Shown piece by piece: positions 1-46,519 of a stretch of DNA of 64,000 nt (position 1 is the first letter of the stretch; the number at the start of each line of letters is the position of its first letter). Source of the stretch: Candidatus Nanoarchaeia archaeon (lineage in GTDB: Archaea > Nanobdellota > Nanobdellia > Woesearchaeales > GW2011-AR9); NCBI GenBank assembly GCA_035291085.1, contig DATDTA010000145.1, positions 193 through 64,192 on the forward strand, in the 5' to 3' direction. The position numbers and the translations under genes were made by a program. The notes under the pieces are model-generated. The model was not told the DNA's origin. It saw only the letters and a list, made by a program, of their open reading frames with translations, and did no database searches.

Positions 1-918
1 TAATCGAGGTTTTTGTTCTTGATACATCCTTAGCCCACCACGGCAGATCGCCATCAACGGGTAAGCAGGACCCAAACCTCTATCAAGAGTTATACCTCCA
101 TCTCTAACAGCTTCTCCCACAGTTTCCTCAAGACCTGCAAAATTATCTTCAAGAAAGACGATCGGATGATGATCTCCAACATCAAGATTAGGAAACCCTG
201 CTGTAGTCACTGCTTTTTTTGCTGCTCTTCGGGCTTGACTTTTATCATTTGTTTCTTCAAAGATGCGATCATGCGCTTGAGAATAGATTGCATACGAAGT
301 ATCATAAATTACCTGCACCTGTGCAGCATCAAGCTTACTTTGGGCTAAGAATACTAAATTAATTCCCTGCGTAAATTCTGGATCAGTTTGATATCCTAAT
401 AGTCTTACATCTTCAAAATGATCAGCAGTAAGACCTATCTCTTCTGATGCTTCCGCGTACAATTGTTGAAATAAAGGATTGCCGGTTGCTCCTTCAGCCG
501 GAGCAGCTGCATAACCTAAAGGCATAAGGCTTACTTTTTCATTTTGTACAAAGCCCTGACGGACACCCACTAATATTCTTTCATCAGAGGTTCGCACAAT
601 TCCTTGTACTGTTAATGGTTTTAATCCTGATAAACCATGATCGCGAACCATCTGTGCATAATAACTCGTCGTAACACATAATTGAGCATCTGAGAAATCA
701 ATTTCCGCGGTATTTGAAGGAACCGCAAGAATATCTTCTTTCCACGGTTTGAGTTTAACTTTAGATTCATACAGTTCTATGTGTCTTTCCCATAAAGCTT
801 TCATTCCATCAGAACTGGGAATGAGTAGATGTACTTGGTCAGCACTCAAGGGCTGATCTAAAGCATACACTAATTGCGTTTTATCGTCACGTGTTTTCAA
901 TCCTATTTTTTGTACCAT
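1..918 (-). CDS. Partial CDS; 5' end in window and 3' end beyond position 1. Hypothetical protein, possibly a degenerate Nudix-like fold.
   Basis: My own translation of the minus strand gives an uninterrupted ORF of more than 300 codons. It starts at ATG 916-918 (MVQKIGLKTRDDKTQLVYALDQ...) and is preceded by a strong SD-like AGGTGGAG about 8 nt upstream. No stop codon occurs before the window edge. The segment ...PAEGATGNPLFQQLYAEASEEIGL weakly resembles a Nudix box. It is absent from the ORF track only because it runs off the edge. Confidence 0.5.
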   Translation of the reverse strand, partial: MVQKIGLKTRDDKTQLVYALDQPLSADQVHLLIPSSDGMKALWERHIELYESKVKLKPWKEDILAVPSNTAEIDFSDAQLCVTTSYYAQMVRDHGLSGLKPLTVQGIVRTSDERILVGVRQGFVQNEKVSLMPLGYAAAPAEGATGNPLFQQLYAEASEEIGLTADHFEDVRLLGYQTDPEFTQGINLVFLAQSKLDAAQVQVIYDTSYAIYSQAHDRIFEETNDKSQARRAAKKAVTTAGFPNLDVGDHHPIVFLEDNFAGLEETVGEAVRDGGITLDRGLGPAYPLMAICRGGLRMYQEQKPRL

Positions 919-983
919 GGTTTTCACTCCACCTAAAGAGGTTATAAAGATTATGATTTCTTATTCTACGTTATCCTGTGCTA

Positions 984-3239
984 TTATTCCTTGGTTACAA
1001 ACACTTCCTCGCCTTTCTGAAGAGCATCAATAATAAGTTGCGAGATCTCGGGACGCATAAACCAGTCGGGAGGAGCCTTACCCTCCTCAAATAGTTTTCG
1101 TGCTTCCGTACCGCTTATAGATAGTCTTGGTTCGGCAGGATCGAAAAAAGCATCTTCTTGCTGATGGCGCTGCTGTTTCTGTGAGTAAAGGACATTCTCG
1201 AACCTGACTGCTTTGATTCCTATTTCCGGAAAACGATCGAATATAGTCTGTGATGCTTTGGGGTGATAGAAACTTCCTACGCCAGTATGGTCTCTTCCTA
1301 CAATAAAATGGCTACAGCCAAAATTCTTTCTGCAGAGAGCAGTAAATAACGCTTCTCTCGGTCCAGCATAGCGAGAATAGGTACAGAACGTTCCAAAGAT
1401 AACTTTATTTTTAGGATAAAATTGTCTAATCATGATATCATACGCTTTAATGATCAATGATGCTTTAAAATCGCCAAGCTTTTTTTTACCAACAATAGGA
1501 TGTACTAAAAGACCATCACAATTCTCTAATTCCATCGCTTTAAGCTGTATAAACTCATGGCTACGGTGAATAACATTTCTGGTATGAAAGCCAACTACCT
1601 TCGCCCAGCCGCGGTCTTCGAATAATTTTCTGGTTTGCTGCGGAGTTAATTCATATTCCTTATGTTCCGAGTTTCTTCTTTTGATTAGATCTACTTTTCC
1701 AGCCAGTAAAACTGGTTGCATAGCTTTAACCATTCTCACCCCGGGATGTTTTTCATCTTCCGCACCATACATTTTCTGCATCATCTCGGTTTTATCAAAA
1801 GTATATTTCTCTTCAAGATGAAGAATCGCCATTATCTCGCCTTGTTGATTTAGCAGCGCTACATCTTGACCAATTGCAAGACGATCTGCCTCGTTCTGTG
1901 CTACATCTAGAATGATGGGTATCGGCCAGATCAGTCCATTGCTCAGCAACATATTATCTAAAACACCTTCAAAATCATTTTTGGTCATAAATCCTTCAAT
2001 GGGACTATATGTCCCCAGAGCAATTTGTTCGGCATCCATCTCTTGGGTTTCTGTAATCCTGATTTTCGGCAAGCTGTGCAGATACTCTGCCGGAAGAGGC
2101 GTTCTAACTACTCTGTTGACCAGCTTCCCGCCATGTGGGGTGATTAAAGAAGAGGAAATACCCGCATCAAGAAGATAATTTGCCTGTTCTAGATTTTGCA
2201 CAAATTTGTCTTCTTTGTCCTTAAAATCTTCAACATTTATTGCTAACTGTGAATGTTGGATTAATTTGTTGAGCATATTAATGCATTCCATGGGATATTT
2301 GCCAATCGCTGTTTCTGCAGCAAGAGTTAAGCCGCAAGCGCCATCCACTATAGTATTGAGAATATCATGGATTTCTGCACGAGTGGGCTTGCGCTTTTCA
2401 ATCATGGTTTCCAGCAGATTAGTAGCTACAAAAACTCCTTTTCCTTTCTTTCTCGCTTTGTTGATGATAATCTTTTGAGTAAAAGGAATTTTTTCTAGCG
2501 GAATTTCTTTGCTTAGGTCGCCGCGATCAACAAGTAAAAAGTCTGATTTCTTGATGATCTGATCAAGATTCTCCAAGGCATCAACACACTCTATCTTGGA
2601 AATGATCCGCATCGTATTTTGAGTTGCTCGTCTCACTTCATCAACAGCTGCGCCGGAACGCATAAATGAAGCAGCAATAAATCCTATTCCTTCTTGCAAT
2701 CCTATTTGAATACATTCATAATCCTTTTCTGATAAAGTGGGAAGAATAAATTTCTTTTGACTGGCAGAATCAACCGATACTGCTTTATTTCTGCCCAGAA
2801 CTCCAGAGGTGATAGCGCGAGCAGTGATATAACCCTGTTGTGCAGTGGAAACATCTGAGACGCGTAAGGTTAACGTATCAAAATCAACATAGATTAGATC
2901 TCCCGGTTCAAGCTGCTGCACGATATGTCCTGGCTTAAGACAAATTTTATCCTGGCTGCCCACAATAGTATCAGCATACACTTTTATTTCTTGGTTCTCC
3001 TCAAAAGCAATGCTGTTTTTGTCTAACTCACCAGTTCTGATCTGAGACCCTTCCGTATCGATGATGAAAGGAATGCCTACTTTTTTAGCCATCTGAATAA
3101 CATCCTTAAGATAATCCAAACTAGAATGAGACATATTTACCCTAACAAAATCCACCCCTTTATCCTTAATCTTCCGCAGCGATTCTTCATCACAGGTAGA
3201 AGGACCGATAGTAACGATTATTTTCACTTTTTTTTCCAC
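984..3239 (-). CDS. Bifunctional fusion: N-terminal pyruvate kinase barrel domain (about aa 1-345) joined to C-terminal sulfate adenylyltransferase (ATP sulfurylase, about aa 350-751).
   Basis: Pyruvate kinase motifs: IIVTIGPST, FVRVNMSHSS, FIIDTEGSQIRTG, LVDRGDLSKEIPLEKIPFTQKIIINKARKKGKGVFVATNLLETM. ATP-sulfurylase motifs: VVGFHTRNVIHRSHEFI (QTRN/HxxH type) and GCSHFIVGRDHTGVG (GRDHAG type). Confidence 0.8.
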   Translation of the reverse strand: MEKKVKIIVTIGPSTCDEESLRKIKDKGVDFVRVNMSHSSLDYLKDVIQMAKKVGIPFIIDTEGSQIRTGELDKNSIAFEENQEIKVYADTIVGSQDKICLKPGHIVQQLEPGDLIYVDFDTLTLRVSDVSTAQQGYITARAITSGVLGRNKAVSVDSASQKKFILPTLSEKDYECIQIGLQEGIGFIAASFMRSGAAVDEVRRATQNTMRIISKIECVDALENLDQIIKKSDFLLVDRGDLSKEIPLEKIPFTQKIIINKARKKGKGVFVATNLLETMIEKRKPTRAEIHDILNTIVDGACGLTLAAETAIGKYPMECINMLNKLIQHSQLAINVEDFKDKEDKFVQNLEQANYLLDAGISSSLITPHGGKLVNRVVRTPLPAEYLHSLPKIRITETQEMDAEQIALGTYSPIEGFMTKNDFEGVLDNMLLSNGLIWPIPIILDVAQNEADRLAIGQDVALLNQQGEIMAILHLEEKYTFDKTEMMQKMYGAEDEKHPGVRMVKAMQPVLLAGKVDLIKRRNSEHKEYELTPQQTRKLFEDRGWAKVVGFHTRNVIHRSHEFIQLKAMELENCDGLLVHPIVGKKKLGDFKASLIIKAYDIMIRQFYPKNKVIFGTFCTYSRYAGPREALFTALCRKNFGCSHFIVGRDHTGVGSFYHPKASQTIFDRFPEIGIKAVRFENVLYSQKQQRHQQEDAFFDPAEPRLSISGTEARKLFEEGKAPPDWFMRPEISQLIIDALQKGEEVFVTKE

Positions 3240-3310
3240 TTCTTTGACACCTCTAACAAAATATTCAAAGAAAAATTCCTTTAAAAGTCTTATGAAAGCT
3301 AATCATGCAA

Positions 3311-4099
3311 CTAGAGATGTATAAAGCGTTGTAAAGTTCCTTCATCCAGCCATCGGGTATACTTCTCATAATCTTCAACCGTATCAAATTCTAACCAGCC
3401 ACGATTAATGACTATCGGCTTCACTTCTTGTCCAGTATTGATCAGCGCCTGCAGCATGCAAGTCATGTATGCTTTCTTGAACGATTTGGATCTCAACCAT
3501 GGTTCATCTTTGTCAAAGCATTGCTGTTTATGATAGTGATAGACTTCCTTCAGTTTTTGCACTCCTTTTTTAGAAAATTTGATCAGGCCAACATATCTAA
3601 GCTGAGCCTTATCCCGAGCGCATTTTGTATCTCCTAACTCCACGATCTTCCCATCCTTGACTACCAAACTTTCCATGTCCTCTTCTGGCTTATCAGTTCG
3701 CGCGCACCAGTATTCCCAGTAATCTTGATCGACAGTAACTCCTACTTCTACTGGCGCATCAATAATAACCTGAAGAACTTTTGGCTCATAGATAACATCC
3801 GCATAGCAGACGAGAACATCTTCTTTTCCATCTAATTCTTTTTCAGCACAGAATAATGTCTCTACCATATTAGTGTTGGCAAAATCTGGATTACGATAAT
3901 ACTTCACTCCTTCAAGAGCTATCTTCTCCGGCTGATATCCTCGCACAATAGAGATGTCAGTAATTCCTGCCCTGCGTAATGTATCAACTTGCCGTTCAAT
4001 TAATGATTTTCCAGCAAAATTAAGCATGCATTTCGGAAGATTTTCGGTATACTTTCCTAATCGTGTTCCCATTCCGGCTGCAAGAATGATGGCTTTCAT
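3311..4099 (-). CDS. LicC-like phospho-alcohol/phosphonate cytidylyltransferase (sugar-phosphate nucleotidyltransferase fold).
   Basis: The N-terminus MKAIILAAGMGTRLGKYTENLPKCML... matches the G-x-G-T-R-L signature and the overall pattern of LicC-type CTP:phosphocholine (or 2-aminoethylphosphonate) cytidylyltransferases. Length is 262 aa. Confidence 0.65.
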   Translation of the reverse strand: MKAIILAAGMGTRLGKYTENLPKCMLNFAGKSLIERQVDTLRRAGITDISIVRGYQPEKIALEGVKYYRNPDFANTNMVETLFCAEKELDGKEDVLVCYADVIYEPKVLQVIIDAPVEVGVTVDQDYWEYWCARTDKPEEDMESLVVKDGKIVELGDTKCARDKAQLRYVGLIKFSKKGVQKLKEVYHYHKQQCFDKDEPWLRSKSFKKAYMTCMLQALINTGQEVKPIVINRGWLEFDTVEDYEKYTRWLDEGTLQRFIHL

Positions 4100-4184
4100 G
4101 CTATCTTGGATTGAGAATTTGATTTAAAATGTTATGTTTTTAGTTACGTAACCTTTATAAAATAACTATTGAAGTGATTATTTC

Positions 4185-5045
4185 ATGTATCTTCATCTTA
4201 TCAGGCATGGACCTAAGAACAATGACCCAAATGTTCATGGAACAGGAGTCGAAGCGCTGTTGGATCCTTCGCAATTGCATAAAATCGTTAATTATGGGAA
4301 ATATCTCCAGCAGAGAGCGGGACAAAGTAGATCTCAGCGAATTATTCTTGAAACTACTCCAGTAGAACGGGCAAAAGCAACAGCTGAAGTCTTGTATAGA
4401 ACTATGATTATACAACTTGAACCGGCTTTTAGTTATGTTAAGCCATCAGTAAATCCTTTAATTGGTTCTTATGCTTACGATGAACAAGGTAAGGCTGTAA
4501 ATTTAGGACCTCAAGCTATGTCCAAATTATGGGCAGAAGCTAAGAAATCAGAACATTGTAATCAATTCCAAGGAGAACACCAACCATTATACGCTTGGTG
4601 TGAGCAAGGATTTGATAATAAGCAAGCAAACAATCCTGCGGATCCTGGTATTTCACTGCGAGAAATATCCTGCAGAATAGGAACATATGTTTATCAGACT
4701 TTGCAAGAGAAAGAGAACCGCGACTTTATTACTGCAATCGGTCATTCGGGGGATATCGAACCGTTTCTATATCTATGCTTGGAAATGCTTGAGGGAAGAG
4801 ATGGAAGTAACCACGATGCATTAACTAGACATTTCAAAAAAACAAGGGGAGCTTTAGAACCATTAACTGGTATCGGCATTGCTTATGATCATTCAGACTT
4901 GTACCTTAGTCATCCATCGGAAAATTCCAGCAAGATGTTTAGAAAAAAAATAGGTATCGAATTATTCCAAGAGCAAGATAATTGGCTTAAAGAAAACGGA
5001 AGAAGTCAGCAAGTTCTTGAAAAGAAAATAGCTGGAGAGAAATAA
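4185..5045 (+). CDS. Histidine phosphatase superfamily protein (phosphoglycerate-mutase-like).
   Basis: N-terminal LIRHGPK (RHG catalytic motif) and a later GHSGDIEPF histidine motif. Confidence 0.55.
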   Translation: MYLHLIRHGPKNNDPNVHGTGVEALLDPSQLHKIVNYGKYLQQRAGQSRSQRIILETTPVERAKATAEVLYRTMIIQLEPAFSYVKPSVNPLIGSYAYDEQGKAVNLGPQAMSKLWAEAKKSEHCNQFQGEHQPLYAWCEQGFDNKQANNPADPGISLREISCRIGTYVYQTLQEKENRDFITAIGHSGDIEPFLYLCLEMLEGRDGSNHDALTRHFKKTRGALEPLTGIGIAYDHSDLYLSHPSENSSKMFRKKIGIELFQEQDNWLKENGRSQQVLEKKIAGEK

Positions 5046-5046
5046 A

Positions 5047-5487
5047 ATGAGTGATTGCGGATTATGTTCTGCTTACAATGAAGATTATAGGGTAGTTTTT
5101 AAGAATGAGAAAGCAGTTTCTTTGGTTATTGCTAACCCCTTTAACGACGGTCACTTGATGGTCCTTCCACGAAGGCACGTCATGACTTTGGATAACTTAA
5201 CCGCAGAGGAGTCAAAAGCACTGCATGAAATACTCTATGAAAGCCAAGAAAGGTTACTGGACGTATTTCCTGATTATCCTCCAGTATTGGGGATGCAAAC
5301 CGGGCGTCATTCTACGCAGCCGCACATTCATTACCAAATGTTTCCTAGTGATGCGCATCTTAGATTATTGTACGGAGCTGCTCATCCAACTGGGAGTTTA
5401 GAAGCAATAAAAGTTCCTCGGACGATTACTCATCCGGAGTATACTACTGAAAAATTGGAAGAAATTGCCAGACGCTTACGCGTCTAA
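5047..5487 (+). CDS. HIT (histidine triad) family nucleotide hydrolase/transferase.
   Basis: Cys-rich N-terminus (CGLCSAY), ...NDGHLMVLPRRH... and a C-terminal QPHIHYQMF histidine-triad-like motif. The start is 1 nt after the stop of the upstream phosphatase gene, which suggests translational coupling. Confidence 0.5.
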   Translation: MSDCGLCSAYNEDYRVVFKNEKAVSLVIANPFNDGHLMVLPRRHVMTLDNLTAEESKALHEILYESQERLLDVFPDYPPVLGMQTGRHSTQPHIHYQMFPSDAHLRLLYGAAHPTGSLEAIKVPRTITHPEYTTEKLEEIARRLRV

Positions 5488-5509
5488 ATTAAAATTTTTC
5501 TCTTTATAT

Positions 5510-6190
5510 TCACTTCTTCCACCATCCTTCTCCTTGTACAAACATCCTAACTAACTTCTCATTAAACACCATATCCGGACTTCTCCTCTCTGGATGCCAC
5601 TGTATTCCCACTAGAGGAAGAGAAGGGTGATAGAAACCTTCCACAATTCCCTCATCACTAACCGCAAACATACGCAGTTGAGGAGAAAGTTCCTTCTGAG
5701 TAAGCCCTTGATTGTGAAATGAGTTAACCATTACTTTACTCCCTAGAACATCTTGATCTGTAACTATATTCAGAGAATGATCTTTTCCTGACGGATGAGC
5801 GCCTTCACCTAAAACATCCTTTAGAACAACCAATTTCCCACCAAAATACACGTTCAAAAACTGCATTCCACGACAGATTCCTAAAAGCGGTATCTTCTTT
5901 TCCAAAGCTAATTCGATCATCCTCTTCTCAGTTGCGTCCCGTTCTGGAGCGATGGAGCTGTTCTCACTACGCTTCCCCCCATACAGCAGCGGATCAACAT
6001 CATTTCCTCCACTTAAAATAACCCGTTCAATCGGAAAATGTTTGAAATAATAATCAACATCTCCGCCATTAGGAATTAACAATAATTTCAACCCGAAAGT
6101 CTCAAAATAGTGTAAATATGCTTGCTCCAGTACACCAATAACATCGCCATGCTTGTTCTTTTCCTGCCGTATCGAAATAGTGCATAACAT
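5510..6190 (-). CDS. Class I glutamine amidotransferase-like / peptidase C26 (gamma-glutamyl hydrolase-like).
   Basis: LLGICRGMQFLNVYFGG (nucleophile Cys elbow) and IQWHPE (His-Glu of the triad). Confidence 0.7.
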   Translation of the reverse strand: MLCTISIRQEKNKHGDVIGVLEQAYLHYFETFGLKLLLIPNGGDVDYYFKHFPIERVILSGGNDVDPLLYGGKRSENSSIAPERDATEKRMIELALEKKIPLLGICRGMQFLNVYFGGKLVVLKDVLGEGAHPSGKDHSLNIVTDQDVLGSKVMVNSFHNQGLTQKELSPQLRMFAVSDEGIVEGFYHPSLPLVGIQWHPERRSPDMVFNEKLVRMFVQGEGWWKK

Positions 6191-6196
6191 TTTTTA

Positions 6197-9115
6197 TTAC
6201 CTCGGGATTATTTTTTGCGCTTTGCAGTCTAAAATGACCTGCTGCGCATTTTTAACCTGATTAAAAATCAAATCGCCGCAGCCGATAGCCGCTGGAATGC
6301 CAAATTCTGCGCATCTGATCGACATATGCGAAGCTACCCCACCATATTTAGTGATTAATCCTGCCGGATTTCGAGTAAATATCCAATCATAACCCGGATC
6401 ACCGTTTTCCAAAACTACTATGCAACCTTCCAAATTCGGAACAACCTTGTCCTGCAATTCAGTAATATTAACGATACTGCTTTCTATTTTCTTTTGTGTG
6501 ATAAAATTTGGTTTAGCCTGATAATGCTGAACAATTTCAAAATCTTGTTCAGAAAAAATAAGCGAGGGCAAAACCAGTTTGTCATTGATTGCTCTCTCTC
6601 GTTCTTGGATTTTAATTAATTTCTTCCAATCTTCCGAAACATTCTGGACATCAGTGGAAGAATTATTGATCTGGAAGATCTCATTAACATCAAGCATAGC
6701 TATTTCCTTCCTGGTAAAACCCATTGCTTCTCCGGCCTTAGCTAGTAATTCTAAAGCATCGCTTAAATTCTTAGTAAATTCAAATTTTGACAACTCTCTG
6801 GCTTGAGTAGCTTTTTCCACAAAGGCAAGAAATTGCGGCCCACCGCATTGCAATCCTTCTTGCTGTAGGGCAGCCGTTATCCGTTGGGTGATTTCATCAT
6901 TCAAATAAGAAATCTCTTTCTTCTCTTCATCTATGGGTAATGAAGTAGAAGCAAGTAAATGAGCAGCTGCATCATAGCGAGGACTAGTGATATCGTATGT
7001 TCCCGGGCGAAGATGATAATATTCTTGAATAAAATCCTGCTTAGAAATAACTCCTTTCATCAGTTTCTTGAAATCCTTACTAATGGTGGTAGCTACGGTG
7101 TTGATAGATTGATATTTTGCACCATAGAATTGTTGAGTGATAATACCTCGCTCAACTAAACTCTTTAAAATTATTTTTCCAATAAATCCTAACCGGGCTA
7201 ACCTCGAAAATTGCACCGTTCCTTTTTTCCGGCATTCATCCAGGAGAGTTTTACTGTACCCGATCAATTTTTGTGGATCACTTTCAGAAGCTATTTTTTG
7301 AGATGAAGATTTTCTTATTTCCTCCATGCTGAAAACAGTTTGCAGGTCAGTTTCAACCGTTTCCACGGAATTAGTGATGAGGTTATTAGTCAATTCCAGC
7401 AATGCTTCTTTTAACTCGGCAATCTCTTTAACAGTAAAGCCGGCTTCCAACAATTCACTAGACCGTTGATCAAAAGTAAGATCGTAGCAGGTATAAAGAA
7501 CTTCAAATTCCACTTTGTCCTGAAGATACGGATTTTTCCTGATTTTTTCCAAATAAAAAGAAGTCAATTTCTCTCGTAATTGGGCAGAGATTGCTGCCGG
7601 AGTAAAAGAATTAAAGGTATTACGTATATTTACGTAGGGCTTATTACCGAATAATTCGATCAGCTTTGCTGGTTGAACATTGTAATATCCTTGAGAAGTT
7701 CTTGCCTCATGCCAGGCACTATTGGTAATAAGATAATCATACAAAGAATAATCTAGAAAATTAGGGTTGTCTCCGATAATTTCCGCAGGGTTCCAATCAG
7801 GCATATCTCCAAAATAAGTAGTTTCCCCGCAAAGGTGGGGCTGCGGCTGGGCCAGAGTCTGGAATCTATCTTTTAGACAAATTATTTTTCTTTTTACTTC
7901 TTCATCATGTTTCTCCTTGTAGCGATTAGCAGCTAAAGGCCTGACCTGAAAAATGACTATTGACTTATCCTTTCGCATCGCAAATTCAATATCTAGGGGC
8001 ATTCCTGGAATGATCTCTTCGATCTCTTGCACTGCCTCCAGAAGAGTACCCATTTTTTCCGGTACTTTTTCGGCAAACCTACTTATCACTATTGATTTAT
8101 TTTCTCTTCCTGCAGTTACCGAATCAGTGCTTCCGGTAGTATCGTCATAGTTGATCACATAGTAAGAGCTGTTCTTTCCTAAAGTCCTGGTGAAAACCAC
8201 TCCGCTCATCACAATATCGGTAGTTTGCTGTTGCACCAGCATCTGGTTGAACGATGTTTCCGCATCCTTCTCTTTGTAAGAAAGCAATACTTTTGTAATA
8301 GCCATTTCAACATCTTTGGTATCGCCAGAGTTGACGTCAAGGACACTTTCAAAACATCCGGCCATGGAATGTTCTAAAGTATCTTCTTTCACCGCTGAGC
8401 TACGTACTACTATTTTTCCCGGAGAGAACTGCTCTTGGATTGCTGCTAGCACTTGCTGTTTTTGATTCTTCCAGTCAGAGATGGTAAAGCTATACAAAGG
8501 TTCAATAACTGACTTAGTAAGCAGAGGCTGCAAGGCTTTCAACGTATCTGCTTTAGAAGAGATGATGACTTTATTCCCTTTTTGCGCTTCTGCATCAAAG
8601 GTTCCTTTGTCTTTGATGTACGAGGTAAAATCAGCAATATCTTTGAATTTATCTTTATTGTCAATTAAATAATTGATTATCTTAAAATTAGAAAGCCGGC
8701 TGTAATAGGGGTGTTTTACAACTTGACCACCGATACTTCGTACATACTCTTCTCCAGGAACATAGTTAAGATCTTCGCCGTGCACTAAGATGATCTCCGC
8801 CTCGGGAAATTCTTCGTGTATCTTTTTTAAATTAGTGGTGCAATCTCTCTGATCCTGAATCATGACCCGGTCAACACAGCGTAAACTATCTACTATCGCC
8901 CTCCTTTCTTCAAGAGTTGAGATTGGTTTAACTCGGTATTCTTCGACCGCCTTATCAGTAATGACGCCGCAGATATTGTAATCAGATATAGATTTAGAGA
9001 ACTCTATGGAACGCAGATGCCCATAATGGAAAAAATCGCAGACTACGCCCAAGTATGCAATTCTTTTAGGCTTATTTTTTGTCTCTCGCTGAACCACCAT
9101 TTTACAAAACACCAA
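6197..9115 (-). CDS. Fusion: N-terminal cytidylyltransferase (TagD/ECT-like, HxGH) joined to a PPDK/PEP-synthase-type ATP-grasp nucleotide-binding domain and a C-terminal PEP-utilizing-enzyme mobile (phosphohistidine swivel) domain.
   Basis: N-terminus RIAYLGVVCDFFHYGHLRSIEF (HxGH cytidylyltransferase motif). The middle region resembles the PPDK N-terminal ATP-grasp fold. The C-terminus has GGVASHMSIRCAEFGIPAAIGCG (PEP-utilizers mobile His domain). The domain order ATP-grasp ... His-swivel matches rifampin phosphotransferase / PEP-synthase-like kinases. Confidence 0.75.
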   Translation of the reverse strand: MVFCKMVVQRETKNKPKRIAYLGVVCDFFHYGHLRSIEFSKSISDYNICGVITDKAVEEYRVKPISTLEERRAIVDSLRCVDRVMIQDQRDCTTNLKKIHEEFPEAEIILVHGEDLNYVPGEEYVRSIGGQVVKHPYYSRLSNFKIINYLIDNKDKFKDIADFTSYIKDKGTFDAEAQKGNKVIISSKADTLKALQPLLTKSVIEPLYSFTISDWKNQKQQVLAAIQEQFSPGKIVVRSSAVKEDTLEHSMAGCFESVLDVNSGDTKDVEMAITKVLLSYKEKDAETSFNQMLVQQQTTDIVMSGVVFTRTLGKNSSYYVINYDDTTGSTDSVTAGRENKSIVISRFAEKVPEKMGTLLEAVQEIEEIIPGMPLDIEFAMRKDKSIVIFQVRPLAANRYKEKHDEEVKRKIICLKDRFQTLAQPQPHLCGETTYFGDMPDWNPAEIIGDNPNFLDYSLYDYLITNSAWHEARTSQGYYNVQPAKLIELFGNKPYVNIRNTFNSFTPAAISAQLREKLTSFYLEKIRKNPYLQDKVEFEVLYTCYDLTFDQRSSELLEAGFTVKEIAELKEALLELTNNLITNSVETVETDLQTVFSMEEIRKSSSQKIASESDPQKLIGYSKTLLDECRKKGTVQFSRLARLGFIGKIILKSLVERGIITQQFYGAKYQSINTVATTISKDFKKLMKGVISKQDFIQEYYHLRPGTYDITSPRYDAAAHLLASTSLPIDEEKKEISYLNDEITQRITAALQQEGLQCGGPQFLAFVEKATQARELSKFEFTKNLSDALELLAKAGEAMGFTRKEIAMLDVNEIFQINNSSTDVQNVSEDWKKLIKIQERERAINDKLVLPSLIFSEQDFEIVQHYQAKPNFITQKKIESSIVNITELQDKVVPNLEGCIVVLENGDPGYDWIFTRNPAGLITKYGGVASHMSIRCAEFGIPAAIGCGDLIFNQVKNAQQVILDCKAQKIIPR

Positions 9116-18300: not shown

Positions 18301-20276
18301 TCAATCTCTTTTTGTAATCCACGTTCAAGCGAAACCGTTGGGAGATATCCTAACTCTTGTTGAGCTCTACTCACATCAAATCTGAAATTAACTTTCATCT
18401 TGGAACGTGGCTCAAACCGAATATTTACTTTTTCCCCGGATAGGGTAATAATTTTCTCTGCCAATTCCAAAATACTTACTTTTCGACCACTCGCTATGTT
18501 AAAAATACCTTCTTTCTTTTTTTCTAATGCGGCAATAACATACTCGGCGGCATCGGAGATGAATAGTACATCCCTAATGTCAGTTCCATCTCCATAGATC
18601 ACGGGATTTTCTCCTCGGAGAACGGCGCTAATAAAATTAGGTATGGCGCGCTCGATTTTCTCACCTGGCCCATAGATGTTCGTTAAGCGCAGAATTGTTA
18701 AAGCTAGTGCATTCCTTGCACTATATAACTGTAAGATATTTTCCGCCATCATCTTACTCATCCCATAATGTGATTTTGGATTAAGCGGATGATGCTCGAA
18801 CAGGGGCATCTCGGTAGGGCCATACACTTCACATGTGCTTAAATAAATGAAATGGGTATTCTTTGCTAGCGTCTCTACTAAGTTTATGGTAGCTACAAGA
18901 TTTCCATCCATACATCTCTTGAGATCATCCTCGGCAGCTTTTTTTGGGACATAGCCAGCACAGTGAATGACATGGGTAAACTGGGATAATGTCTTTGCCT
19001 GTGCAGCTACCTCTAATTTATTCGATAAATCACATACCATAAAAGGGGGAGAGTGTTGCTGTAAGAAGGCAGTGGCCTCTTCATTGCTGCCACGCAATAA
19101 TGCTGTTACGTCATACCCTCTTTCCTCCAGCGTTTTAAATAATTCTAATCCAATGTGTCCAGTTACACCCGTTACTAAAATTTTTTTCGATTGAGAATTG
19201 ATTCTCTGACGACGCAATTCCAAAGTAATCTCTGCTTCTTCAATTTTCTTGCTCGTTGTCAACACTGGAAGAAAGTCCATTCCTCGAATCCACACCAGAT
19301 CGGTGGGCAGGGGATTTATTCTCTTTTCAGGAGCAGTAACTGTTTCGCCAAATGCCATCTTTACAAAGAGGTAAGGCATATTCAATCCTGCCCGGGTAAA
19401 AAATTCGTGAGTAGTAAAGAAACGCCCGATATTTATCTCCGTTGGACAAGGAATGCCAGTATTGTCATAAGTTAAATCAACTGAAAAAATTCCATTTGGT
19501 TTCTTATCGATAGCAAAGACTGCTTTCATCGCGATATCATCTACGAGAGGATCACTCATCGTAACTCCCCCGCCGGTTGCACCAGTAACTCCTGACGGAG
19601 AAATCTTAGACAGCTCCCAGTACAATCGTTCCCGACCCTGAGCAACAACTAATTCCCCTTCATTCCAAATAGACATCCAGGTTACGGAGTTTGGTTCCAG
19701 GCATTCTGCCGCAGTATATTTCCCCCACCCCTCCTTAAAATCCAACCAAGATTTTGCTACTTTAAAGTCAGTTGCTGGTAATGAACCTCTGCCTCCAGCA
19801 CCGGTCGTATCACGCAACCAGATCTTATTCCCAAATTTTGCAAAAGCAAGTGTTAAATCATTTTCACCATTAATCAACATGGTCTTGGGTTGTTTAATCC
19901 CTGCTTCTTCCCATCTCTTATAAGATTCCAGTTTATTTAGACATATTCGCACCGTTTCTTTAGAAGGAAGAAAAAGCGCGATGGGAAGTTTCTCTCTGTT
20001 CTCAGAAATCGCTTCCATTTCCACATCATTTTGTATATGTAAAAATTCTGCTTTACTTTCCTTGATTATCTCAGATAGTACCTGAAAGTAATCGTGATCT
20101 AATGCTCCCGGAACCAGATGCCGTTCATCAGTTTCCGCTCGGTGGAGATAATACTTGCTTGAGTCTGTACCGATAATATAAAACTGTTCCGGAGCTGCTC
20201 TCAGGGAACGTATGAAATTTGCGGCAGGACTGCCTCCTGCCCCCGTAACCAATATTCTTTTCATTATACCTTGCAC
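18279..20276 (-). CDS. Fusion: ATP-grasp ligase domain (N-terminal, about 340 aa) joined to an NAD-dependent epimerase/dehydratase (extended SDR, C-terminal).
   Basis: The N-terminus RILVTGAGGSPAANFIRSL with an ATP-grasp-like central fold resembles PylC/carbamoyl-phosphate-synthase-type ligases found in sugar-modification loci. The C-terminus has KKILVTGVTGHIGLEL (Rossmann) and YGMSK (YxxxK). Confidence 0.65.
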   Translation of the reverse strand: MQGIMKRILVTGAGGSPAANFIRSLRAAPEQFYIIGTDSSKYYLHRAETDERHLVPGALDHDYFQVLSEIIKESKAEFLHIQNDVEMEAISENREKLPIALFLPSKETVRICLNKLESYKRWEEAGIKQPKTMLINGENDLTLAFAKFGNKIWLRDTTGAGGRGSLPATDFKVAKSWLDFKEGWGKYTAAECLEPNSVTWMSIWNEGELVVAQGRERLYWELSKISPSGVTGATGGGVTMSDPLVDDIAMKAVFAIDKKPNGIFSVDLTYDNTGIPCPTEINIGRFFTTHEFFTRAGLNMPYLFVKMAFGETVTAPEKRINPLPTDLVWIRGMDFLPVLTTSKKIEEAEITLELRRQRINSQSKKILVTGVTGHIGLELFKTLEERGYDVTALLRGSNEEATAFLQQHSPPFMVCDLSNKLEVAAQAKTLSQFTHVIHCAGYVPKKAAEDDLKRCMDGNLVATINLVETLAKNTHFIYLSTCEVYGPTEMPLFEHHPLNPKSHYGMSKMMAENILQLYSARNALALTILRLTNIYGPGEKIERAIPNFISAVLRGENPVIYGDGTDIRDVLFISDAAEYVIAALEKKKEGIFNIASGRKVSILELAEKIITLSGEKVNIRFEPRSKMKVNFRFDVSRAQQELGYLPTVSLERGLQKEIEWYNSKQ

Positions 20277-21346
20277 CTCTTTAGAATATCAACAATTTTA
20301 CTGCTGATAGCAGGATTCTGTAATTCCGTTTTCACAATCTTTCTCGATAATTGCTCCTCAGCAGCTTTTACTAAATCGCCAGTATTAGTTCCCACTAAAA
20401 ATGCCTTCCCTTGATCAATCAGCTCATGTAGTTCTGTTTTTTCCCGAGGAATAAGCGCAGGCACATTCAAAAAGGTCGCTTCTTCAAGCACCCCCCCAGA
20501 ATCTGTAATTACCACTGAACATTTTGACAACAAAGAAACAAACGCTGCATAACCTTGTGGTTCTAACACTTTTACCTTTGCTGAAAGCCGTATTTTATTT
20601 TCAGATAGAACTTTTTTTGTTCTGGGGTGAATGGGAAAAACTACGGAAGCTTTTTCAGATAAAATATTAAGTGCTTCAACGATATTCCGTAATCTGGCAG
20701 GATTATCAGTATTCTCAGCCCGATGAATTGTTACTAGAATATTCCCCTTACGTTCTGAAACTTCATCATCCGAAACTTCCACAAAAACATTTTTAGAAAC
20801 GTTGCTAAGAGTAATCGCCCGAAAACAAGCTTCTTCTACAATATTTCCTACATAAAAAATTTGTTCTTGTTTCAATCCTTCTTTTAGCAAATTATCTGTA
20901 CTTTCTGTATCGATGGTAAATAAGATATCAGCACAATGGTCAGCAACAATTCGGTTTATTTCTTCCGGCTGATATCTGTTTCTTGACCTGCATCCAGCTT
21001 CTAGATGAACAACTTTGCATCCTAATTTGCTTCCCACTACCGCAGCTGCCAGAGTAGAATTTGTATCTCCTAAGACTATCAGCAAATCAGGTTTTTCTTT
21101 CAACAATACTCTCTCCAGCTCTAACATGATTTTTCCGGTCTGCTCCCCATGCCTTCCAGAACCTACATTAAGATTATAATCCGGCTCACGAACCTGCAAC
21201 TCTTGAAAGAACATCTGGTCCATCTCCCAAGAATAATGCTGGCCGGTATGAACTAAGACCTGCTCAAATTCTGCATCAAGCAGAGGTATCAGTGGGGAAA
21301 GCTTAATAATCTCCGGTCTAGTTCCGAGAACAGTAACAACTTTCAT
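20264..21346 (-). CDS. UDP-N-acetylglucosamine 2-epimerase family (WecB/NeuC/LegG-like).
   Basis: MKVVTVLGTRPEIIKLSPLI is a hallmark N-terminus. Length is 360 aa. Confidence 0.85.
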   Translation of the reverse strand: MKVVTVLGTRPEIIKLSPLIPLLDAEFEQVLVHTGQHYSWEMDQMFFQELQVREPDYNLNVGSGRHGEQTGKIMLELERVLLKEKPDLLIVLGDTNSTLAAAVVGSKLGCKVVHLEAGCRSRNRYQPEEINRIVADHCADILFTIDTESTDNLLKEGLKQEQIFYVGNIVEEACFRAITLSNVSKNVFVEVSDDEVSERKGNILVTIHRAENTDNPARLRNIVEALNILSEKASVVFPIHPRTKKVLSENKIRLSAKVKVLEPQGYAAFVSLLSKCSVVITDSGGVLEEATFLNVPALIPREKTELHELIDQGKAFLVGTNTGDLVKAAEEQLSRKIVKTELQNPAISSKIVDILKRCKV

Positions 21347-22083
21347 AATTCTTTCCCAACCGTTTTGAAAACGACAATTCTTTTCATCAGATTGAGATGG
21401 CTTTTAATCGTGTTCAACAGCTTCATCTTAGAAACACCGAACTGTCGGACTCGCAAGGTGGCAGGAATCTCTTTAACTTTATATCCTTTCAGAACTGCTT
21501 TGATCAGAATTTCCGAAACATACAAAAAATTATTTGCTTCGCTGTGAACATTCTGCAAAACTTCTCTCTTATACACCCGCACCATTGCTCCATGAGTGTA
21601 GATTCCAGAATTCAGTAAATGCTTGTACATCATGGAAGAGCTCTTACTCAGGAAAATCCTCCAGGCCGGCACATTCTCCACTTTTCCCTGCGGATGATAC
21701 GGTGAGACAGTAACGATGTGAGTATCTTTATCAAGCAACCGCAACATCTCCGGCAGCAAAGAAAAAGGATAAGTACAATCACTGTCCCAGGTAGCGATGA
21801 GGCTTCCTTCGGCATGACTAAAACCAGTTTTCAAGGCCGCGCCTAAGTTCTGGTTCTTTTCATGCTTGATTATTTTAACTGCAGGATTACTTCCAAAGTG
21901 CTGATGAAGAAATTCATTTGTTTTATCAGTGCTTCCATCATCCACAAAAATAATTTCTGAGGCATATTTTGGCAGTAGGGAGGCTGTGACAGAAGCAAGC
22001 TGTTCTATCAGCTGCGGAATCCCCTCCTCCTCATTATAACAAGGGACTATAATAGAAAGGGTTTCTTTCTCTTTCAAAGCCAT
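21343..22083 (-). CDS. GT2-family glycosyltransferase.
   Basis: LSIIVPCYNEEEGIP, FVDDGSTDKT, WDSD. Confidence 0.75.
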   Translation of the reverse strand: MALKEKETLSIIVPCYNEEEGIPQLIEQLASVTASLLPKYASEIIFVDDGSTDKTNEFLHQHFGSNPAVKIIKHEKNQNLGAALKTGFSHAEGSLIATWDSDCTYPFSLLPEMLRLLDKDTHIVTVSPYHPQGKVENVPAWRIFLSKSSSMMYKHLLNSGIYTHGAMVRVYKREVLQNVHSEANNFLYVSEILIKAVLKGYKVKEIPATLRVRQFGVSKMKLLNTIKSHLNLMKRIVVFKTVGKEL

Positions 22084-22114
22084 AAATCTGCAAGAAATTT
22101 TTCCTTTAAAAGGT

Positions 22115-23110
22115 TTATGATACTATCTCTTTCTTTTTCTTCCAGAAAATCAGCAAGAGTGAACCTACTGCTACCAAAAGATAATACGCAACCATACGAT
22201 CGATAAGAATTGCGCTTTTAATTACCGGAGGATATGCTCCAGTCAACGAAGAAAGGATGTTGGCAGCAGAAAATTCCACTACTCCAATGCCTCCAGGAAT
22301 AGCTGAAAGAACTCCGATCAGCACCGAAGAACTGAGCACAAATCCTACTGCCATAAACGGCACAGAGACAGTTAAAAAATGTAATATGTACCACAGGCGT
22401 ATTATTTCCAAGATAATTGCCGCCACCGAAATAGCTGCAACAAGAATAAAACTTTTCTCATTAAAAGCAGTAAAGGAAGAGATTATTTGTTCGCACCATA
22501 ACGCTATTTTATCTCGGAAAGAAACTGGAAGAGGCAGCCGAGGTGCAGCTTTTTGCAACATTTTAAGAACCGACACCGGCGAAAGCAGCATCCCCGCAAT
22601 TAACAAGCATAATAACACCAGCAACATACGTATCTGTCCCTGGCCGGTCGCCCCATCAAGATGTACAAAAAATAATCCCAACACCAGAAAAATAAGAACA
22701 GAAAAAAGATCAAATAATCTCTCAATTAACATCAAGGGAAAAGACTTTGAGATTGGGATGTCAAAATCATGCTTTAAGAGGAGCGGCTTGCTCAGCTCGA
22801 TTCTACCGGGGATTAAACTGGCTGCAGCAACTCCCCCCAAGATGGATTTAAAAGAAAATAAAAAAGATATGTTCTCTCCAGAAGCCTTGGAAGTGAGAAA
22901 TTGCCAGCGATACGCCCGCAGGGAAATGCTCAAGATGGTTAACAAGAGAATAATAATTACTGAAGAAAATGTCAGCGAAGATAAGCTTTTTGAAATAGCT
23001 ACTAAATCTAGCGATTTTAAGAAAAAGATCAAGATAATCACGCCCAATAGAAACAGCAGATGTTTCAATCTGAACTTTTTCAGCAGCTCTTTCATAAGAT
23101 CAATGAACAA
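22115..23110 (-). CDS. Polytopic membrane protein; flippase-like (UPF0104 / lysyl-PG-synthase transmembrane-domain-like).
   Basis: Eight or more predicted hydrophobic helices, no catalytic motifs recognised, located between glycosyltransferase genes. Confidence 0.45.
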   Translation of the reverse strand: MFIDLMKELLKKFRLKHLLFLLGVIILIFFLKSLDLVAISKSLSSLTFSSVIIILLLTILSISLRAYRWQFLTSKASGENISFLFSFKSILGGVAAASLIPGRIELSKPLLLKHDFDIPISKSFPLMLIERLFDLFSVLIFLVLGLFFVHLDGATGQGQIRMLLVLLCLLIAGMLLSPVSVLKMLQKAAPRLPLPVSFRDKIALWCEQIISSFTAFNEKSFILVAAISVAAIILEIIRLWYILHFLTVSVPFMAVGFVLSSSVLIGVLSAIPGGIGVVEFSAANILSSLTGAYPPVIKSAILIDRMVAYYLLVAVGSLLLIFWKKKKEIVS

Positions 23111-23216
23111 AAGTAATTTATATAGTTTATGCTAAGGCTTGTGAAAAGGTTAGTGCCGCCTCAAAAAAGATTTCTAATCAATTACTTTTATAAAACAATT
23201 TTGAAGAAATCAATCT

Positions 23217-24689
23217 ATGAGAAAAAAGTTTGTGGTTCTACTAACAGTGATAATCCTGCTAGGACTACTGTTGCGCCTGTATGATCTAAATAAGGAAAGC
23301 ATCTGGGTAGACGAGGCGTATTCACTGCACTATGCCCTGCTGCCTTCTCCAAATGAAGTGATGGCTGGCACTGTTGAAACCGAAGGCGCTCCTCCTGGAT
23401 ATTACCTCTTACTTCATTATTGGATAAAGGCTTTTGGTTCTTCAGAATTTTCAGTGCGCTTTCCGTCTTTATTGGCAGGAGCCCTATCAATTGCCATTAT
23501 CTTCAAAATCGGAGAAGTCCTTTATGATCGTCGCACTGGTTTAATCGCAGCCCTTTTACTCTCCACATCTATGTTGCAGATATTATTTTCACAGGAAACC
23601 AGGCTTTATAGTATTTATGGCCTTCTAACGCTCTGCACTCTATACTTCTTTAGTAAAATCTACAACAAATCGCTGCGGCAGCTGCCAGCTTCGAACCAAG
23701 ATTACTTTTTCTACACCCTAAGCATGATTTTATCACTGTATCTTAATTTCGTTGCTGGAATTCTGATCGCTCTGTATACTTTTGCTGCTCTCTGGCACAA
23801 AAAACATTTTCCCTGGAAAAAATGGTTAGCGACCAACCTTGCTATAATCTTAATTGCTTTACCTTTGATTCCTTTATTTTTACAGCAATATATTACTGCA
23901 GATACGGGAATAGCTCCCGAGCTTATCCAAAAAGGAGTCCCAGTATTCCTAGCAAAATTAGGCGTTTTCTTTTACGCAGTGCCATTGATGGTAGTCCTTC
24001 TGGCAGCCGGAGCTATTTTCTTGTGTAAAAAAAGAATTACCGCTCTTGTTTCAAGACTACAAATTCCCGATTATTATTGGACTTTAATCATACTTACTTT
24101 TGCCATGATCTATCTTTATTTCTCGTTCTTTCCACTCTCTATTCTTGGTTTTGTCCTTTCACGCGCTCCGATAACCCATTCCTTTTTCCTGATACGGCAC
24201 TCTTATTTTTTAGTACCTATACTCTACCTCTACCTCGCCTACAAAATTTCAAACTTCAAAAGAACTAGGCTTACTGTGCTTTGTATCATAGCTTTAGTTA
24301 CTGTAAATTCTCTAGCCCTATCTGAATATTACCAAGAACCTACAAAAGCAGAATGGCAGGAGGCAGCACAGTTCATAGAAGAAAGAACTACTGGAACGAC
24401 TACTCTGTTACTTGATCGCGGCGGTCTAGGACCAGTGTTTCTCTCTGAATACTATTTCTTAAAACCGGAGATCATTAGATTAACCTGGACCGAAGGCCGG
24501 CGTGAAAACAAGATGCTGACGGAAGAAGCTTTGCTGCAAGTCCTACAAGACCAAGACGAATTTTGGCTGATATTATCAGGCAATTATCAACCAGACGAAT
24601 ATTACCGTAAACTTCTAGATAAAAACTACCAACGCGATATCTCTCAGGAATTTTATTTGATAAAAGTGTACCATTATACTAACAACTAG
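23217..24689 (+). CDS. GT-C fold glycosyltransferase (ArnT/PMT, GT39/GT83-like) using a polyprenyl-phosphate-sugar donor.
   Basis: N-terminal transmembrane helix, then a first-loop acidic motif RLYDLNKESIWVDEAYS. Multiple transmembrane helices and a C-terminal soluble domain. Confidence 0.65.
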   Translation: MRKKFVVLLTVIILLGLLLRLYDLNKESIWVDEAYSLHYALLPSPNEVMAGTVETEGAPPGYYLLLHYWIKAFGSSEFSVRFPSLLAGALSIAIIFKIGEVLYDRRTGLIAALLLSTSMLQILFSQETRLYSIYGLLTLCTLYFFSKIYNKSLRQLPASNQDYFFYTLSMILSLYLNFVAGILIALYTFAALWHKKHFPWKKWLATNLAIILIALPLIPLFLQQYITADTGIAPELIQKGVPVFLAKLGVFFYAVPLMVVLLAAGAIFLCKKRITALVSRLQIPDYYWTLIILTFAMIYLYFSFFPLSILGFVLSRAPITHSFFLIRHSYFLVPILYLYLAYKISNFKRTRLTVLCIIALVTVNSLALSEYYQEPTKAEWQEAAQFIEERTTGTTTLLLDRGGLGPVFLSEYYFLKPEIIRLTWTEGRRENKMLTEEALLQVLQDQDEFWLILSGNYQPDEYYRKLLDKNYQRDISQEFYLIKVYHYTNN

Positions 24690-24737
24690 CCCCAAAAAAC
24701 GGATATTTTTATATAATCCCACTGTTCCCAATCATAG

Positions 24738-26723: not shown

Positions 26724-26762
26724 GTAGATAGTTTTAAAAATAATTAGTTTTTCTTTCAAAAT

Positions 26763-27800
26763 ATGGATATTTTAGCAAAAGCAATTCTCGATAGCCAACA
26801 AATCGAAGCACGTAAAAGACTAGGCGTCAAGGGTATCGAACTGCTTCTTCTTGACAAAGATTTTCGTGATCTTGACAAAACTAAAGAAGCCTTGATTCGG
26901 ATTGCTCAGGAATGGGAGATTGTCGCTTTAGAAGCTCCGGACAGCACCAAAGAATACCGCCTTAACCCTTTTTCCGCCGATAGTAAAACAAGAGTATCAA
27001 GTAGAGATTTTTTATTGAGATATGTAGAACTAGCTAACTCCGTAAACAACATCACAAAAAATATTGCCTACGCACAATTCCAATATATATTTGATGGATT
27101 CGATGATAAGGGCAGACCAGTAGAAGTTGATAGAGAAAGGCAATTGGGGGAGATTAGAGAACATTATGAAAGCTTAAGACGAAATTCCCAAGTAGAATTA
27201 CAAATAGAAAATATTACTCAAATTAATCCTGCCTACGCCGACGGTAGTTTGTGCCACTGTTATACCACTACGCGGCCGAGCGATTTCCCAATCATTGGAA
27301 CACCTTTAGCTCTAGACGTAATACACTTAGCCCAAGTTCTGTATACATGGTTAAAAACGGAACCGACGGATGAAGACAAAAACATCGCGAGAGTAAAGAT
27401 TCCCGGGATGCCGCAGTTCGGGGGAGGAGTGTACATTCAAATGACTGATGAGGACAAAAAAACTGCTGAGAGAATTAAGAAAGAACAAAAAGAAACTAAC
27501 CTCAGAGAAACAATTACTTCAGAGTTGGTTAGAGTCATAAACTTTTACAAGCCGCTAATCGGCTCACTGCAATTTGCTAATGCTAGCGTCGGCTTTGGAG
27601 CTTTTCCTGGAGAAGATGGTGTTGCCAGCGACACTGGACTGATAGATTTAAAACGAGTTTTCCAAGAAGCAATAATTCCGGCTAATGTTCCTTACGTAAT
27701 TCCCGAATATAGAGAAACTGATTGGCTTAATCCCCTTAACCAACAAAATGCCATTGCTATGGTAAGGAGATTATCTGAAGAATATTCTAAAAGAGAGTAG
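26763..27800 (+). CDS. Hypothetical protein, no recognisable domain.
   Basis: Clean 345-aa ORF with coding-like composition. I recognise no motifs. Confidence 0.5.
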   Translation: MDILAKAILDSQQIEARKRLGVKGIELLLLDKDFRDLDKTKEALIRIAQEWEIVALEAPDSTKEYRLNPFSADSKTRVSSRDFLLRYVELANSVNNITKNIAYAQFQYIFDGFDDKGRPVEVDRERQLGEIREHYESLRRNSQVELQIENITQINPAYADGSLCHCYTTTRPSDFPIIGTPLALDVIHLAQVLYTWLKTEPTDEDKNIARVKIPGMPQFGGGVYIQMTDEDKKTAERIKKEQKETNLRETITSELVRVINFYKPLIGSLQFANASVGFGAFPGEDGVASDTGLIDLKRVFQEAIIPANVPYVIPEYRETDWLNPLNQQNAIAMVRRLSEEYSKRE

Positions 27801-27803
27801 AGC

Positions 27804-29629: not shown

Positions 29630-29644
29630 ATCAAAAAGTAAACT

Positions 29645-33237: not shown

Positions 33238-33285
33238 TTCTCTGTTCCAGAAGCCTTAAAAATATATCGGCCAGGGAGTTATGGT

Positions 33286-46516: not shown

Positions 46517-46519
46517 ACA

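Follow-up and report, generated by a model that had tools for sequence, protein, structure and literature searches.

Why would a pyruvate kinase and an ATP sulfurylase be carried on one polypeptide, and what would such an enzyme do? The question is raised by a gene in a 64,000-nucleotide stretch of DNA from a Candidatus Nanoarchaeia (DPANN) archaeon (contig DATDTA010000145.1, positions 193 to 64,192; hereafter the window), the surroundings of which are a 64-kb surface-glycan island. On balance we think it probable that the fusion is a bifunctional enzyme that heads a set of sulfation genes, with the pyruvate kinase (PK) half regenerating ATP from phosphoenolpyruvate (PEP). An earlier note, made by reading this DNA by eye, had claimed that one open reading frame (ORF) joins PK to ATP sulfurylase; the 751-aa ORF is indeed uninterrupted, and a Pfam scan matches both enzymes as well as a PUA_2 domain between them. 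The gene and its parts are:

984..3239, minus strand: PK-PUA_2-ATP sulfurylase fusion gene, a single 751-aa ORF with a GTG start at 3239
2280..3233, minus strand: PK barrel (A and B domains), residues 3-320, PF00224 at 253 bits and E 4e-75 (Pfam)
2145..2279, minus strand: inter-domain segment, residues 321-365, with long helices predicted by the structure model at 316-333 and 336-352
1677..2144, minus strand: PUA_2 domain, residues 366-521, PF14306 at 168 bits (Pfam)
1029..1658, minus strand: ATP-sulfurylase catalytic domain, residues 528-737, PF01747 at 249 bits (Pfam)

Gene callers use an alternative GTG start at 3227, 12 nt downstream, which yields a protein of 747 aa. Each of the motifs quoted in the earlier note (TIGPS, RVNMSHS, DTEGSQIRTG, DRGDLS, HTRNVIHRSHE and GRDHTGVG) was found in the translation. 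No stop codon or frameshift separates the two halves, and independent assemblies carry the identical ORF. The fusion junction is not an assembly artefact, because another assembly contains a contig, L092, with 100% identity across window positions 1..8351, and three further contigs (L089-L091) are 99.98-99.99% identical to the window. An AlphaFold (AF2) model built from the family alignment has a mean predicted local confidence (pLDDT) of 81.8 and a predicted template modeling score (pTM) of 0.80, and has a connector made of helices and a short, disordered linker between the halves; the low-confidence linker (residues 362-372) opens at the end of the inter-domain segment and extends into the start of PUA_2. 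The sulfurylase half of the model superposes on the solved structure 8a8d with a template modeling score (TM) of 0.90. A whole-protein fold search returned no solved structure covering both halves, the best query TM being 0.46.

The 3' part of the fusion gene also shows strain-level variation. Several independent contigs end or diverge there, at roughly 1057..1225 of the window (L084 at 1214, L089 and L091 at 1225, and L090 at 1057), and the differences between P0001 and the window protein are almost confined to the last ~85 residues. Together these suggest a strain-level recombination junction within the C-terminal part of the gene.

How common is the architecture? With one genome scanned for each species, at least 596 related stretches were returned, the best 79 of which were analyzed as loci. 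Both halves were matched at 72/79 of these loci and a full-length ORF was present in 65, so that the full-length fusion is encoded by at least 65 species-level genomes; the PK, PUA_2 and ATP-sulfurylase architecture also occurs in all 120 best protein clusters (62-95% identity). With this breadth, and with the identical ORF in independent assemblies, an artefactual origin of the fusion is effectively refuted. The carriers are Woesearchaeota and other DPANN, many candidate phyla radiation (CPR) lineages, Chloroflexota, Acidobacteriota, Elusimicrobia, Omnitrophota and Proteobacteria, and include the cultured Mesorhizobium amorphae and Salsipaludibacter albus. The window protein is 59-63% identical to Chloroflexia and CPR versions and 45-49% identical to most Woesearchaeota versions, which indicates that the gene has been transferred between the two domains of life. 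Four clusters (P0049, P0051, P0053 and P0071) are PK-ATP sulfurylase-APS kinase triple fusions, APS being adenosine 5'-phosphosulfate, and the C-terminal APS-kinase domain was verified in P0051 (174 bits) and P0071 (159 bits); these support a three-way functional link. Members of the family are labeled in databases as either 'pyruvate kinase' or 'sulfate adenylyltransferase'. We found no published description of a PK-ATP sulfurylase fusion in the literature searched, in which coverage of subscription journals is thin. The fusion is a rarity in the literature only. We class it as a sulfate-activating enzyme of the known Sat type in which the coupling domain is new, in an architecture that is already widespread in sequence data.

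Is the sulfurylase half a genuine ATP sulfurylase? The NCBIfam sulfate adenylyltransferase models exceed their curated cut-offs (PRK04149, 434 versus 387; TIGR00339, 357 versus 323), and this half aligns with the ATP sulfurylases of Methanothermococcus thermolithotrophicus (8a8d, 318 bits) and Thermus thermophilus (1v47, 290 bits). Its motifs in the window protein are FHTRNVIHRSHE, with H552 in place of the canonical Q, and GRDHTGVG, with T652 for the canonical A. Residue conservation was judged on an alignment of the 65 full-length fusions, which reach down to 38% identity. R554, N555, H558, H561, R649, H651 and G653 are kept in 65/65, including both histidines of the HxxH motif, and D650 is kept in 64/65. 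By family membership this half would join ATP and sulfate into APS. In 65/65 fusions H replaces the Q of QTRN, and in 60/65 T or S replaces the A of GRDHAG, at positions that are retained as Q and A in stand-alone sulfurylases from the same search. These positions correspond to the sulfate contacts Q195 and A293 (side-chain and backbone) of the yeast ATP sulfurylase structure. The window fusion itself has no match to the APS_kinase domain PF01583 in Pfam, and the model NF004040 scores 294 against a cut-off of 669.

The PK half presents the same combination of conserved catalytic residues and family-specific changes. Its alignment with solved PKs covers the whole half (E 1e-56), and the window barrel has the catalytic set R33, N35, S37, D61, T62, R68, K152, K215, E217, D241, T273 and E309. 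In rabbit PK numbering, onto which we mapped the motifs, the equivalents of R72, N74, S76, H77, D112, T113, R119, K206, K269, E271, G294, D295, T327 and E363 are kept wherever they are covered in the 65 fusions. The sole variation at these sites is T/S exchange at the T113 and T327 equivalents, and a few ORFs are truncated at the N terminus. The complete set of PEP- and Mg-binding residues is therefore kept along with the nucleotide- and phosphate-binding R72, H77, R119 and K206 equivalents, and the monovalent-cation site is complete in the A and B domains. The PK C-terminal domain is missing, as had been proposed: Pfam gives no match to the alpha/beta domain PK_C in the window protein. For this reason full-length PK models score below their cut-offs (PRK05826, 302.7 versus 432; TIGR01064, 294.5 versus 306.4) and align over profile positions 1-360 only. 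In the fusion family DTKGPEIR has become DTEGSQIR (K114E/Q, E117Q), ARGDLG has become DRGDLS (A292D, G297S) and ATQM has become ATNL (Q328N), and these five substitutions are kept in 61-65/65 fusions.

The missing C-terminal domain, which is the regulatory domain of PK, and the sub-threshold scores of the full-length models would also be expected if the PK half were a non-catalytic module that senses PEP or ADP or holds an oligomer together. Fungal ATP sulfurylase, a structure of which (1i2d) is among the structure matches, offers a precedent: its allosteric domain, which is APS-kinase-like, is a degenerate enzyme domain that serves as a regulator. Yet all catalytic and metal-binding residues are kept across 65 fusions to 38% identity, which is unexpected for a module that only binds, and we regard a purely regulatory or oligomerizing role as unlikely. 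The sulfurylase Q195H change, present in fusions only, co-occurs with the substitutions close to the PK active site. With the catalytic residues conserved and fusion-specific changes in both halves, the two halves look active and also co-adapted.

If the fusion makes APS, which gene products take it further? The gene lies only 983 nt from the left edge of the window, so that its downstream side is largely outside, and the ORF that follows it within the window is:

1..918, minus strand: orf308, on the same strand as the fusion and immediately downstream of it, with its last 2 codons outside the window (L092 7434-8360)

This ORF has no Pfam match and only 2 homologues among 5.8 billion proteins, and it lies between the fusion and a P-loop kinase that starts just past the window edge. 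It is missing from the otherwise syntenic contigs L094 and L100 and thus looks like a strain-specific insertion. A tblastn search of the 64-kb window, for which two APS-kinase domains and three sulfotransferases served as queries, gave nothing better than E 0.2, and no APS kinase or sulfotransferase was found by Pfam in 47 window ORFs; of the four functions of a cassette built around 3'-phosphoadenosine 5'-phosphosulfate (PAPS), the window itself encodes the activating enzyme only. The earlier note, seeing no APS kinase, had proposed that the product may be APS itself or a sulfated or nucleotidylated headgroup. The apparent lack is an effect of the window edge, since kinase, sulfotransferase and CysQ-like genes are found in contigs that continue beyond it.

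Among contigs at least 99.98% identical to the window, L092 reaches farthest past position 1, by 192 nt, and there a gene begins with MTKGLPLIIVCGLSGSGKTHSS..., including a P-loop, its start being ~21 nt beyond the window edge. These first 57 aa are 95% identical to the 191-aa AAA_33 kinase of L173 and L175, in which the fusion is followed, in this order, by orf308 (95% identical to that of the window), AAA_33 kinase, Sulfotransfer_1 and Inositol_P. The best family match of the Inositol_P gene is CysQ (TIGR01331), at 202 bits against a cut-off of 228.8. L094 and L100 have the gene order of the window upstream of the fusion and then AAA_33 kinase, Sulfotransfer_1 and Inositol_P after it, and the same downstream continuation occurs in L080, where the fusion is 83% identical. 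The AAA_33/Zeta-toxin-like P-loop kinase of this lineage (L175 993-1568; L094 6528-7115; L100 16740-17309; L080 12574-13182) has no NCBIfam match; we consider it a candidate non-orthologous APS kinase that may replace the canonical one. In L080 (12266-12577) and L087 (12287-12580) a PQ-loop/SemiSWEET-like membrane protein of ~100 aa is encoded between the fusion and the kinase.

The wider family has the same types of neighbors. Counts were made on 66 full-length fusion loci in fetched stretches of limited flank. A canonical APS kinase is present at 37/66 loci, in most cases on the strand of the fusion and 6-30 nt downstream of it, and a Pfam-verified sulfotransferase lies within 3 kb of the fusion at 31/66. 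At least one of APS kinase, sulfotransferase and CysQ-type phosphatase is near the fusion at 50/66 loci, and at 29/36 of those where each flank spans 5 kb or more. De novo clustering of the flanking ORFs returned generic glycan genes, with sulfotransferases nearest to the fusion. A protein of ~515 aa that combines NTP_transf_5 with a P-loop region (weakly thymidylate-kinase-like) is encoded near the fusion at 7 loci (L002, L011, L013, L055, L060, L063 and L069), 0/7 of which have an APS kinase, so that the distributions of the two kinases are complementary. A distant relative of this protein (E 1e-7) is the 429-aa ORF at 60844..62133 on the minus strand of the window. At some loci genes of the sulfatase/phosphoethanolamine-transferase family flank the fusion (L043 14098-15909; L087 8676-9905), and their products could be transferases for an activated group rather than hydrolases.

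These neighbors bear on the direction of the reaction. ATP sulfurylase is reversible, and the earlier note had raised operation in the energy-conserving, dissimilatory direction (APS + pyrophosphate (PPi) to ATP) as well as an assembly or frameshift artefact. The recurrent neighbors include sulfotransferases and CysQ but no redox sulfur genes; since such neighbors consume PAPS, the ATP-generating direction does not fit. Taking in the artefactual origin dealt with above, we hold this pair of explanations to be very improbable.

The preferred reading, PEP-driven regeneration of ATP at the head of a sulfation cassette, would proceed as follows. The C-terminal PUA_2 and sulfurylase half would convert ATP and sulfate to APS, and the P-loop kinase encoded just downstream, of the AAA_33 type in the lineage of the window and a canonical APS kinase in most others, would convert APS to PAPS. 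Going by synteny, a sulfotransferase would then move the sulfate onto a glycan and a CysQ-type phosphatase would clear the by-product 3'-phosphoadenosine 5'-phosphate (PAP). The PK half would transfer phosphate from PEP to ADP and so refill ATP for both ATP-consuming steps; it would also remove ADP and so keep APS kinase out of the dead-end ADP.APS complex. The net conversion would be sulfate + ATP + PEP to PAPS + PPi + pyruvate, in which the free energy of PEP would pull the unfavorable sulfurylase equilibrium. This equilibrium is among the most unfavorable in central metabolism, and by textbook free energies the overall conversion becomes favorable, even without removal of pyrophosphate, once the PEP reaction is added. 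PEP coupling of APS formation is thus plausible, and we infer that PEP-driven rephosphorylation of ADP is the most economical role for the PK half. In vitro, PAPS synthesis nearly fails without PK and PEP owing to ADP and the dead-end enzyme-ADP-APS complex (PMC9885120). The outcome of the pathway, PAPS for glycan sulfation, is conventional.

Several observations weigh against this reading. The ATP made by PK diffuses freely, and regeneration therefore requires no fusion. The AAA_33 kinase of the lineage has only the P-loop in common with APS kinases, and the sulfotransferase and CysQ genes of the source genome are placed by 95-100% identical contigs, outside the window. No kinase candidate is nearby at 19/57 of the loci that have at least 1 kb downstream of the fusion, and 13 loci have a sulfotransferase yet no APS kinase in the fetched stretch. 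The replacement of the two sulfate contacts, Q195 in 65/65 and A293 in 60/65 fusions, could mean a different substrate specificity. Finally, the substitutions close to the PK active site (K114E/Q, E117Q, A292D, Q328N and G297S) are conserved throughout the fusions.

The last of these, which co-occur with Q195H, would be accounted for if the PK half were catalytic with an acceptor or donor other than ADP and PEP, for example if it phosphorylated APS or an intermediate of the cassette with PEP. Such altered chemistry would also account for the 13 loci that combine a sulfotransferase with no APS kinase. The R72, H77, R119 and K206 equivalents are kept, however, along with the full PEP/Mg set; a kinase gene (APS kinase, AAA_33, or NTP_transf_5 plus P-loop) stands beside most fusions and is fused to them in four relatives; and missing kinases may sit elsewhere in the larger genomes. 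We therefore give altered PK chemistry a low probability. Q195H and A293T in the sulfurylase and K114E, E117Q, A292D and Q328N in PK are fixed in fusions only. In a more specific form of the preferred reading, the fusion performs PEP-driven sulfate activation with co-evolved active sites, its effective substrates are ADP, PEP and sulfate in place of free ATP, and the kinase in the lineage of the window is the non-canonical AAA_33 type. We advance this form tentatively, as possible though rather doubtful.

Do the genes on the other side of the fusion take part? Upstream of it the window contains the following genes:

3311..4099, minus strand: LicC-like nucleoside triphosphate (NTP) transferase, 71 nt upstream of the fusion on the same strand, with generic matches only
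5047..5487, plus strand: HIT-family gene, PF01230 at 35.5 bits
5510..6190, minus strand: Cj1417-like GATase, best match gamma-glutamyl-CDP-amidate hydrolase, 88.7 against a cut-off of 250
6197..9115, minus strand: Cj1418-like kinase, PRK05849 at 841 bits against a cut-off of 501, with an extra N-terminal cytidylyltransferase-like domain

The HIT gene had been proposed as a partner of the fusion. Its existence is borne out by the PF01230 match; the partnership is not, since tblastn found HIT at 0/79 fusion loci and at 2/80 Cj1418-like loci, one of the two being L094 of the lineage of the window. The other window neighbors were likewise rejected as conserved fusion partners (NTP transferase at 2-5/79 loci, GATase at 1/79, Cj1418-like gene at 1/79 and the 286-aa ORF next to HIT at 0/79). 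HIT and the 286-aa ORF form a pair (4185..5487, plus strand) that is divergently transcribed inside the module formed by the other three genes. The 286-aa ORF has no Pfam match, and an N-terminal 'RHG' resembles histidine phosphatases. The HIT gene recurs in contigs of the same lineage (L084, L089-L092 and L094), and the 286-aa ORF only in the near-identical L084 and L089-L092. Since HIT enzymes are known phosphoramidases, it may be this module, and not the sulfurylase, that the pair goes with.

The three-gene module itself (5510..9115 and 3311..4099) appears to resemble, in a DPANN archaeon, the phosphoramidate cofactor module of the Campylobacter jejuni type, taking PRK05849 as the counterpart of Cj1418. 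Conversely, when 80 metagenome loci with a Cj1418-like gene were scanned, GATase was present in 70/80 and the NTP transferase in 66/80, and a fusion or sulfurylase in just 8/80. The likeness to the C. jejuni O-methyl-phosphoramidate pathway (Cj1415-Cj1418) concerns these neighbor genes only, the Cj1418-like gene, GATase and LicC-like NTP transferase being conserved together. The differences are that the module is separate from the fusion, that the hydrolase of the window scores under its cut-off and that the kinase-like protein of the window has an extra domain. No homologue of Cj1415 or of APS kinase was found in the 64-kb window.

Could the fusion nevertheless work jointly with this module, with HIT or with both in producing some other activated nucleotide, for example a phosphoramidate derived from APS, or might a sulfate donor and a phosphoramidate donor depend on one common 3'-kinase and one common bisphosphate nucleotidase? 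The window, L093, L094 and L100 have a common gene order of fusion and module, and in L043, a Rhodospirillales chromosome where the fusion is 40% identical, the Cj1418-like gene, fusion, APS kinase, GATase and NTP transferase are independently interleaved. A sulfurylase and an APS kinase lie near the three-gene module in L128 and L147, P0018 consists of an N-terminal NTP transferase (68% identical to that of the window) followed by PK-ATP sulfurylase, and Cj1415 of C. jejuni is an APS-kinase homologue. P0018 is known from a single contig, however, and the two modules seldom meet: the Cj1418-like gene and GATase occur at 1/79 and HIT at 0/79 fusion loci, and fusion or sulfurylase at 8/80 and HIT at 2/80 Cj1418-like loci, against 70/80 and 66/80 for GATase and NTP transferase. 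Because both modules reside in glycan islands, some adjacency is expected. We judge a joint product to be quite unlikely, and we read the fusion cassette and the phosphoramidate-like module as two modules for cofactor synthesis that follow a similar logic and adjoin each other in glycan islands. They may have a 3'-kinase and bisphosphate nucleotidase in common, the evidence for a functional coupling being weak.

The window as a whole is one glycan-biosynthesis island, with several unusual multi-domain genes in 9215..62133, and no tRNA genes were found in the 64 kb. The genes include:

9215..10609: His_Phos_1 plus methyltransferase
13660..14556: Fic gene
18279..20276: PylC-like ATP-grasp plus epimerase
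41028..44204: carbamoyltransferase plus DUF4910/DUF2172 plus winged helix-turn-helix
44201..45424: MaoC plus aminoglycoside N-acetyltransferase-like
55541..58510: DegT plus CMP-sugar synthetase plus NeuB

What would follow from the preferred reading? PEP-driven activation would, if true, make the sulfation of surface glycans affordable to symbionts that are poor in energy (DPANN, CPR), and because the family is large, crosses the domains of life and has cultured carriers, the idea is directly testable. There is also an issue of annotation. Metagenomic surveys tally the `sat` genes in genomes of CPR and DPANN as potential for sulfur cycling (PMC12153355), and the gene context of the fusion points to surface-glycan decoration instead of sulfur cycling.

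How does the fusion compare with known enzymes? Like stand-alone Sat (8a8d, 1v47), it has PUA_2 and the catalytic domain at full length, with HxxH, RNxxH and the GRDH loop; it differs by ~350 additional N-terminal PK residues and by HTRN for QTRN and GRDHTG for GRDHAG, changes that track the fusion. With PykF, PKM and the short PKs made of A and B domains only (NCBIfam PRK06739) it shares these two domains with complete active-site residues. Unlike PykF and PKM, it is without the C-domain (allosteric, tetramer interface), has unusual conserved substitutions and is joined to a non-glycolytic enzyme.

The known pulls on ATP sulfurylase are GTP hydrolysis (CysDN), APS-kinase fusion or channeling, and pyrophosphatase. 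In the PAPS synthases (human PAPSS1/2 and Aquifex aeolicus 2gks), as would be the case here, sulfate activation is aided by a fused second enzyme of the pathway, and the relatives P0051 and P0071 carry a real APS-kinase domain; the partner in the window protein is instead PK, the kinase has a gene of its own, and in the lineage of the window that kinase is not of the APS_kinase family. CysDN couples GTP hydrolysis to unfavorable APS formation, and is alike in coupling a second exergonic nucleotide reaction to this step. It differs in having an unrelated sulfurylase fold, with no homology detected, and in hydrolyzing GTP within the complex as opposed to PEP-driven regeneration of ATP. PEP coupling would thus be a third solution beside the GTP hydrolysis of CysDN and direct fusion to APS kinase. 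The closest functional parallel is engineered: PAPS cascades driven by PK and PEP use the same enzymes with the same rationale, removal of ADP and relief of the APS-kinase dead end (PMC9885120). There the enzymes are separate components of a laboratory mix, whereas the fusion is one natural polypeptide, and a natural PEP-dependent, ATP-regenerating fusion would add a new coupling principle that has already been imposed artificially for PAPS synthesis.

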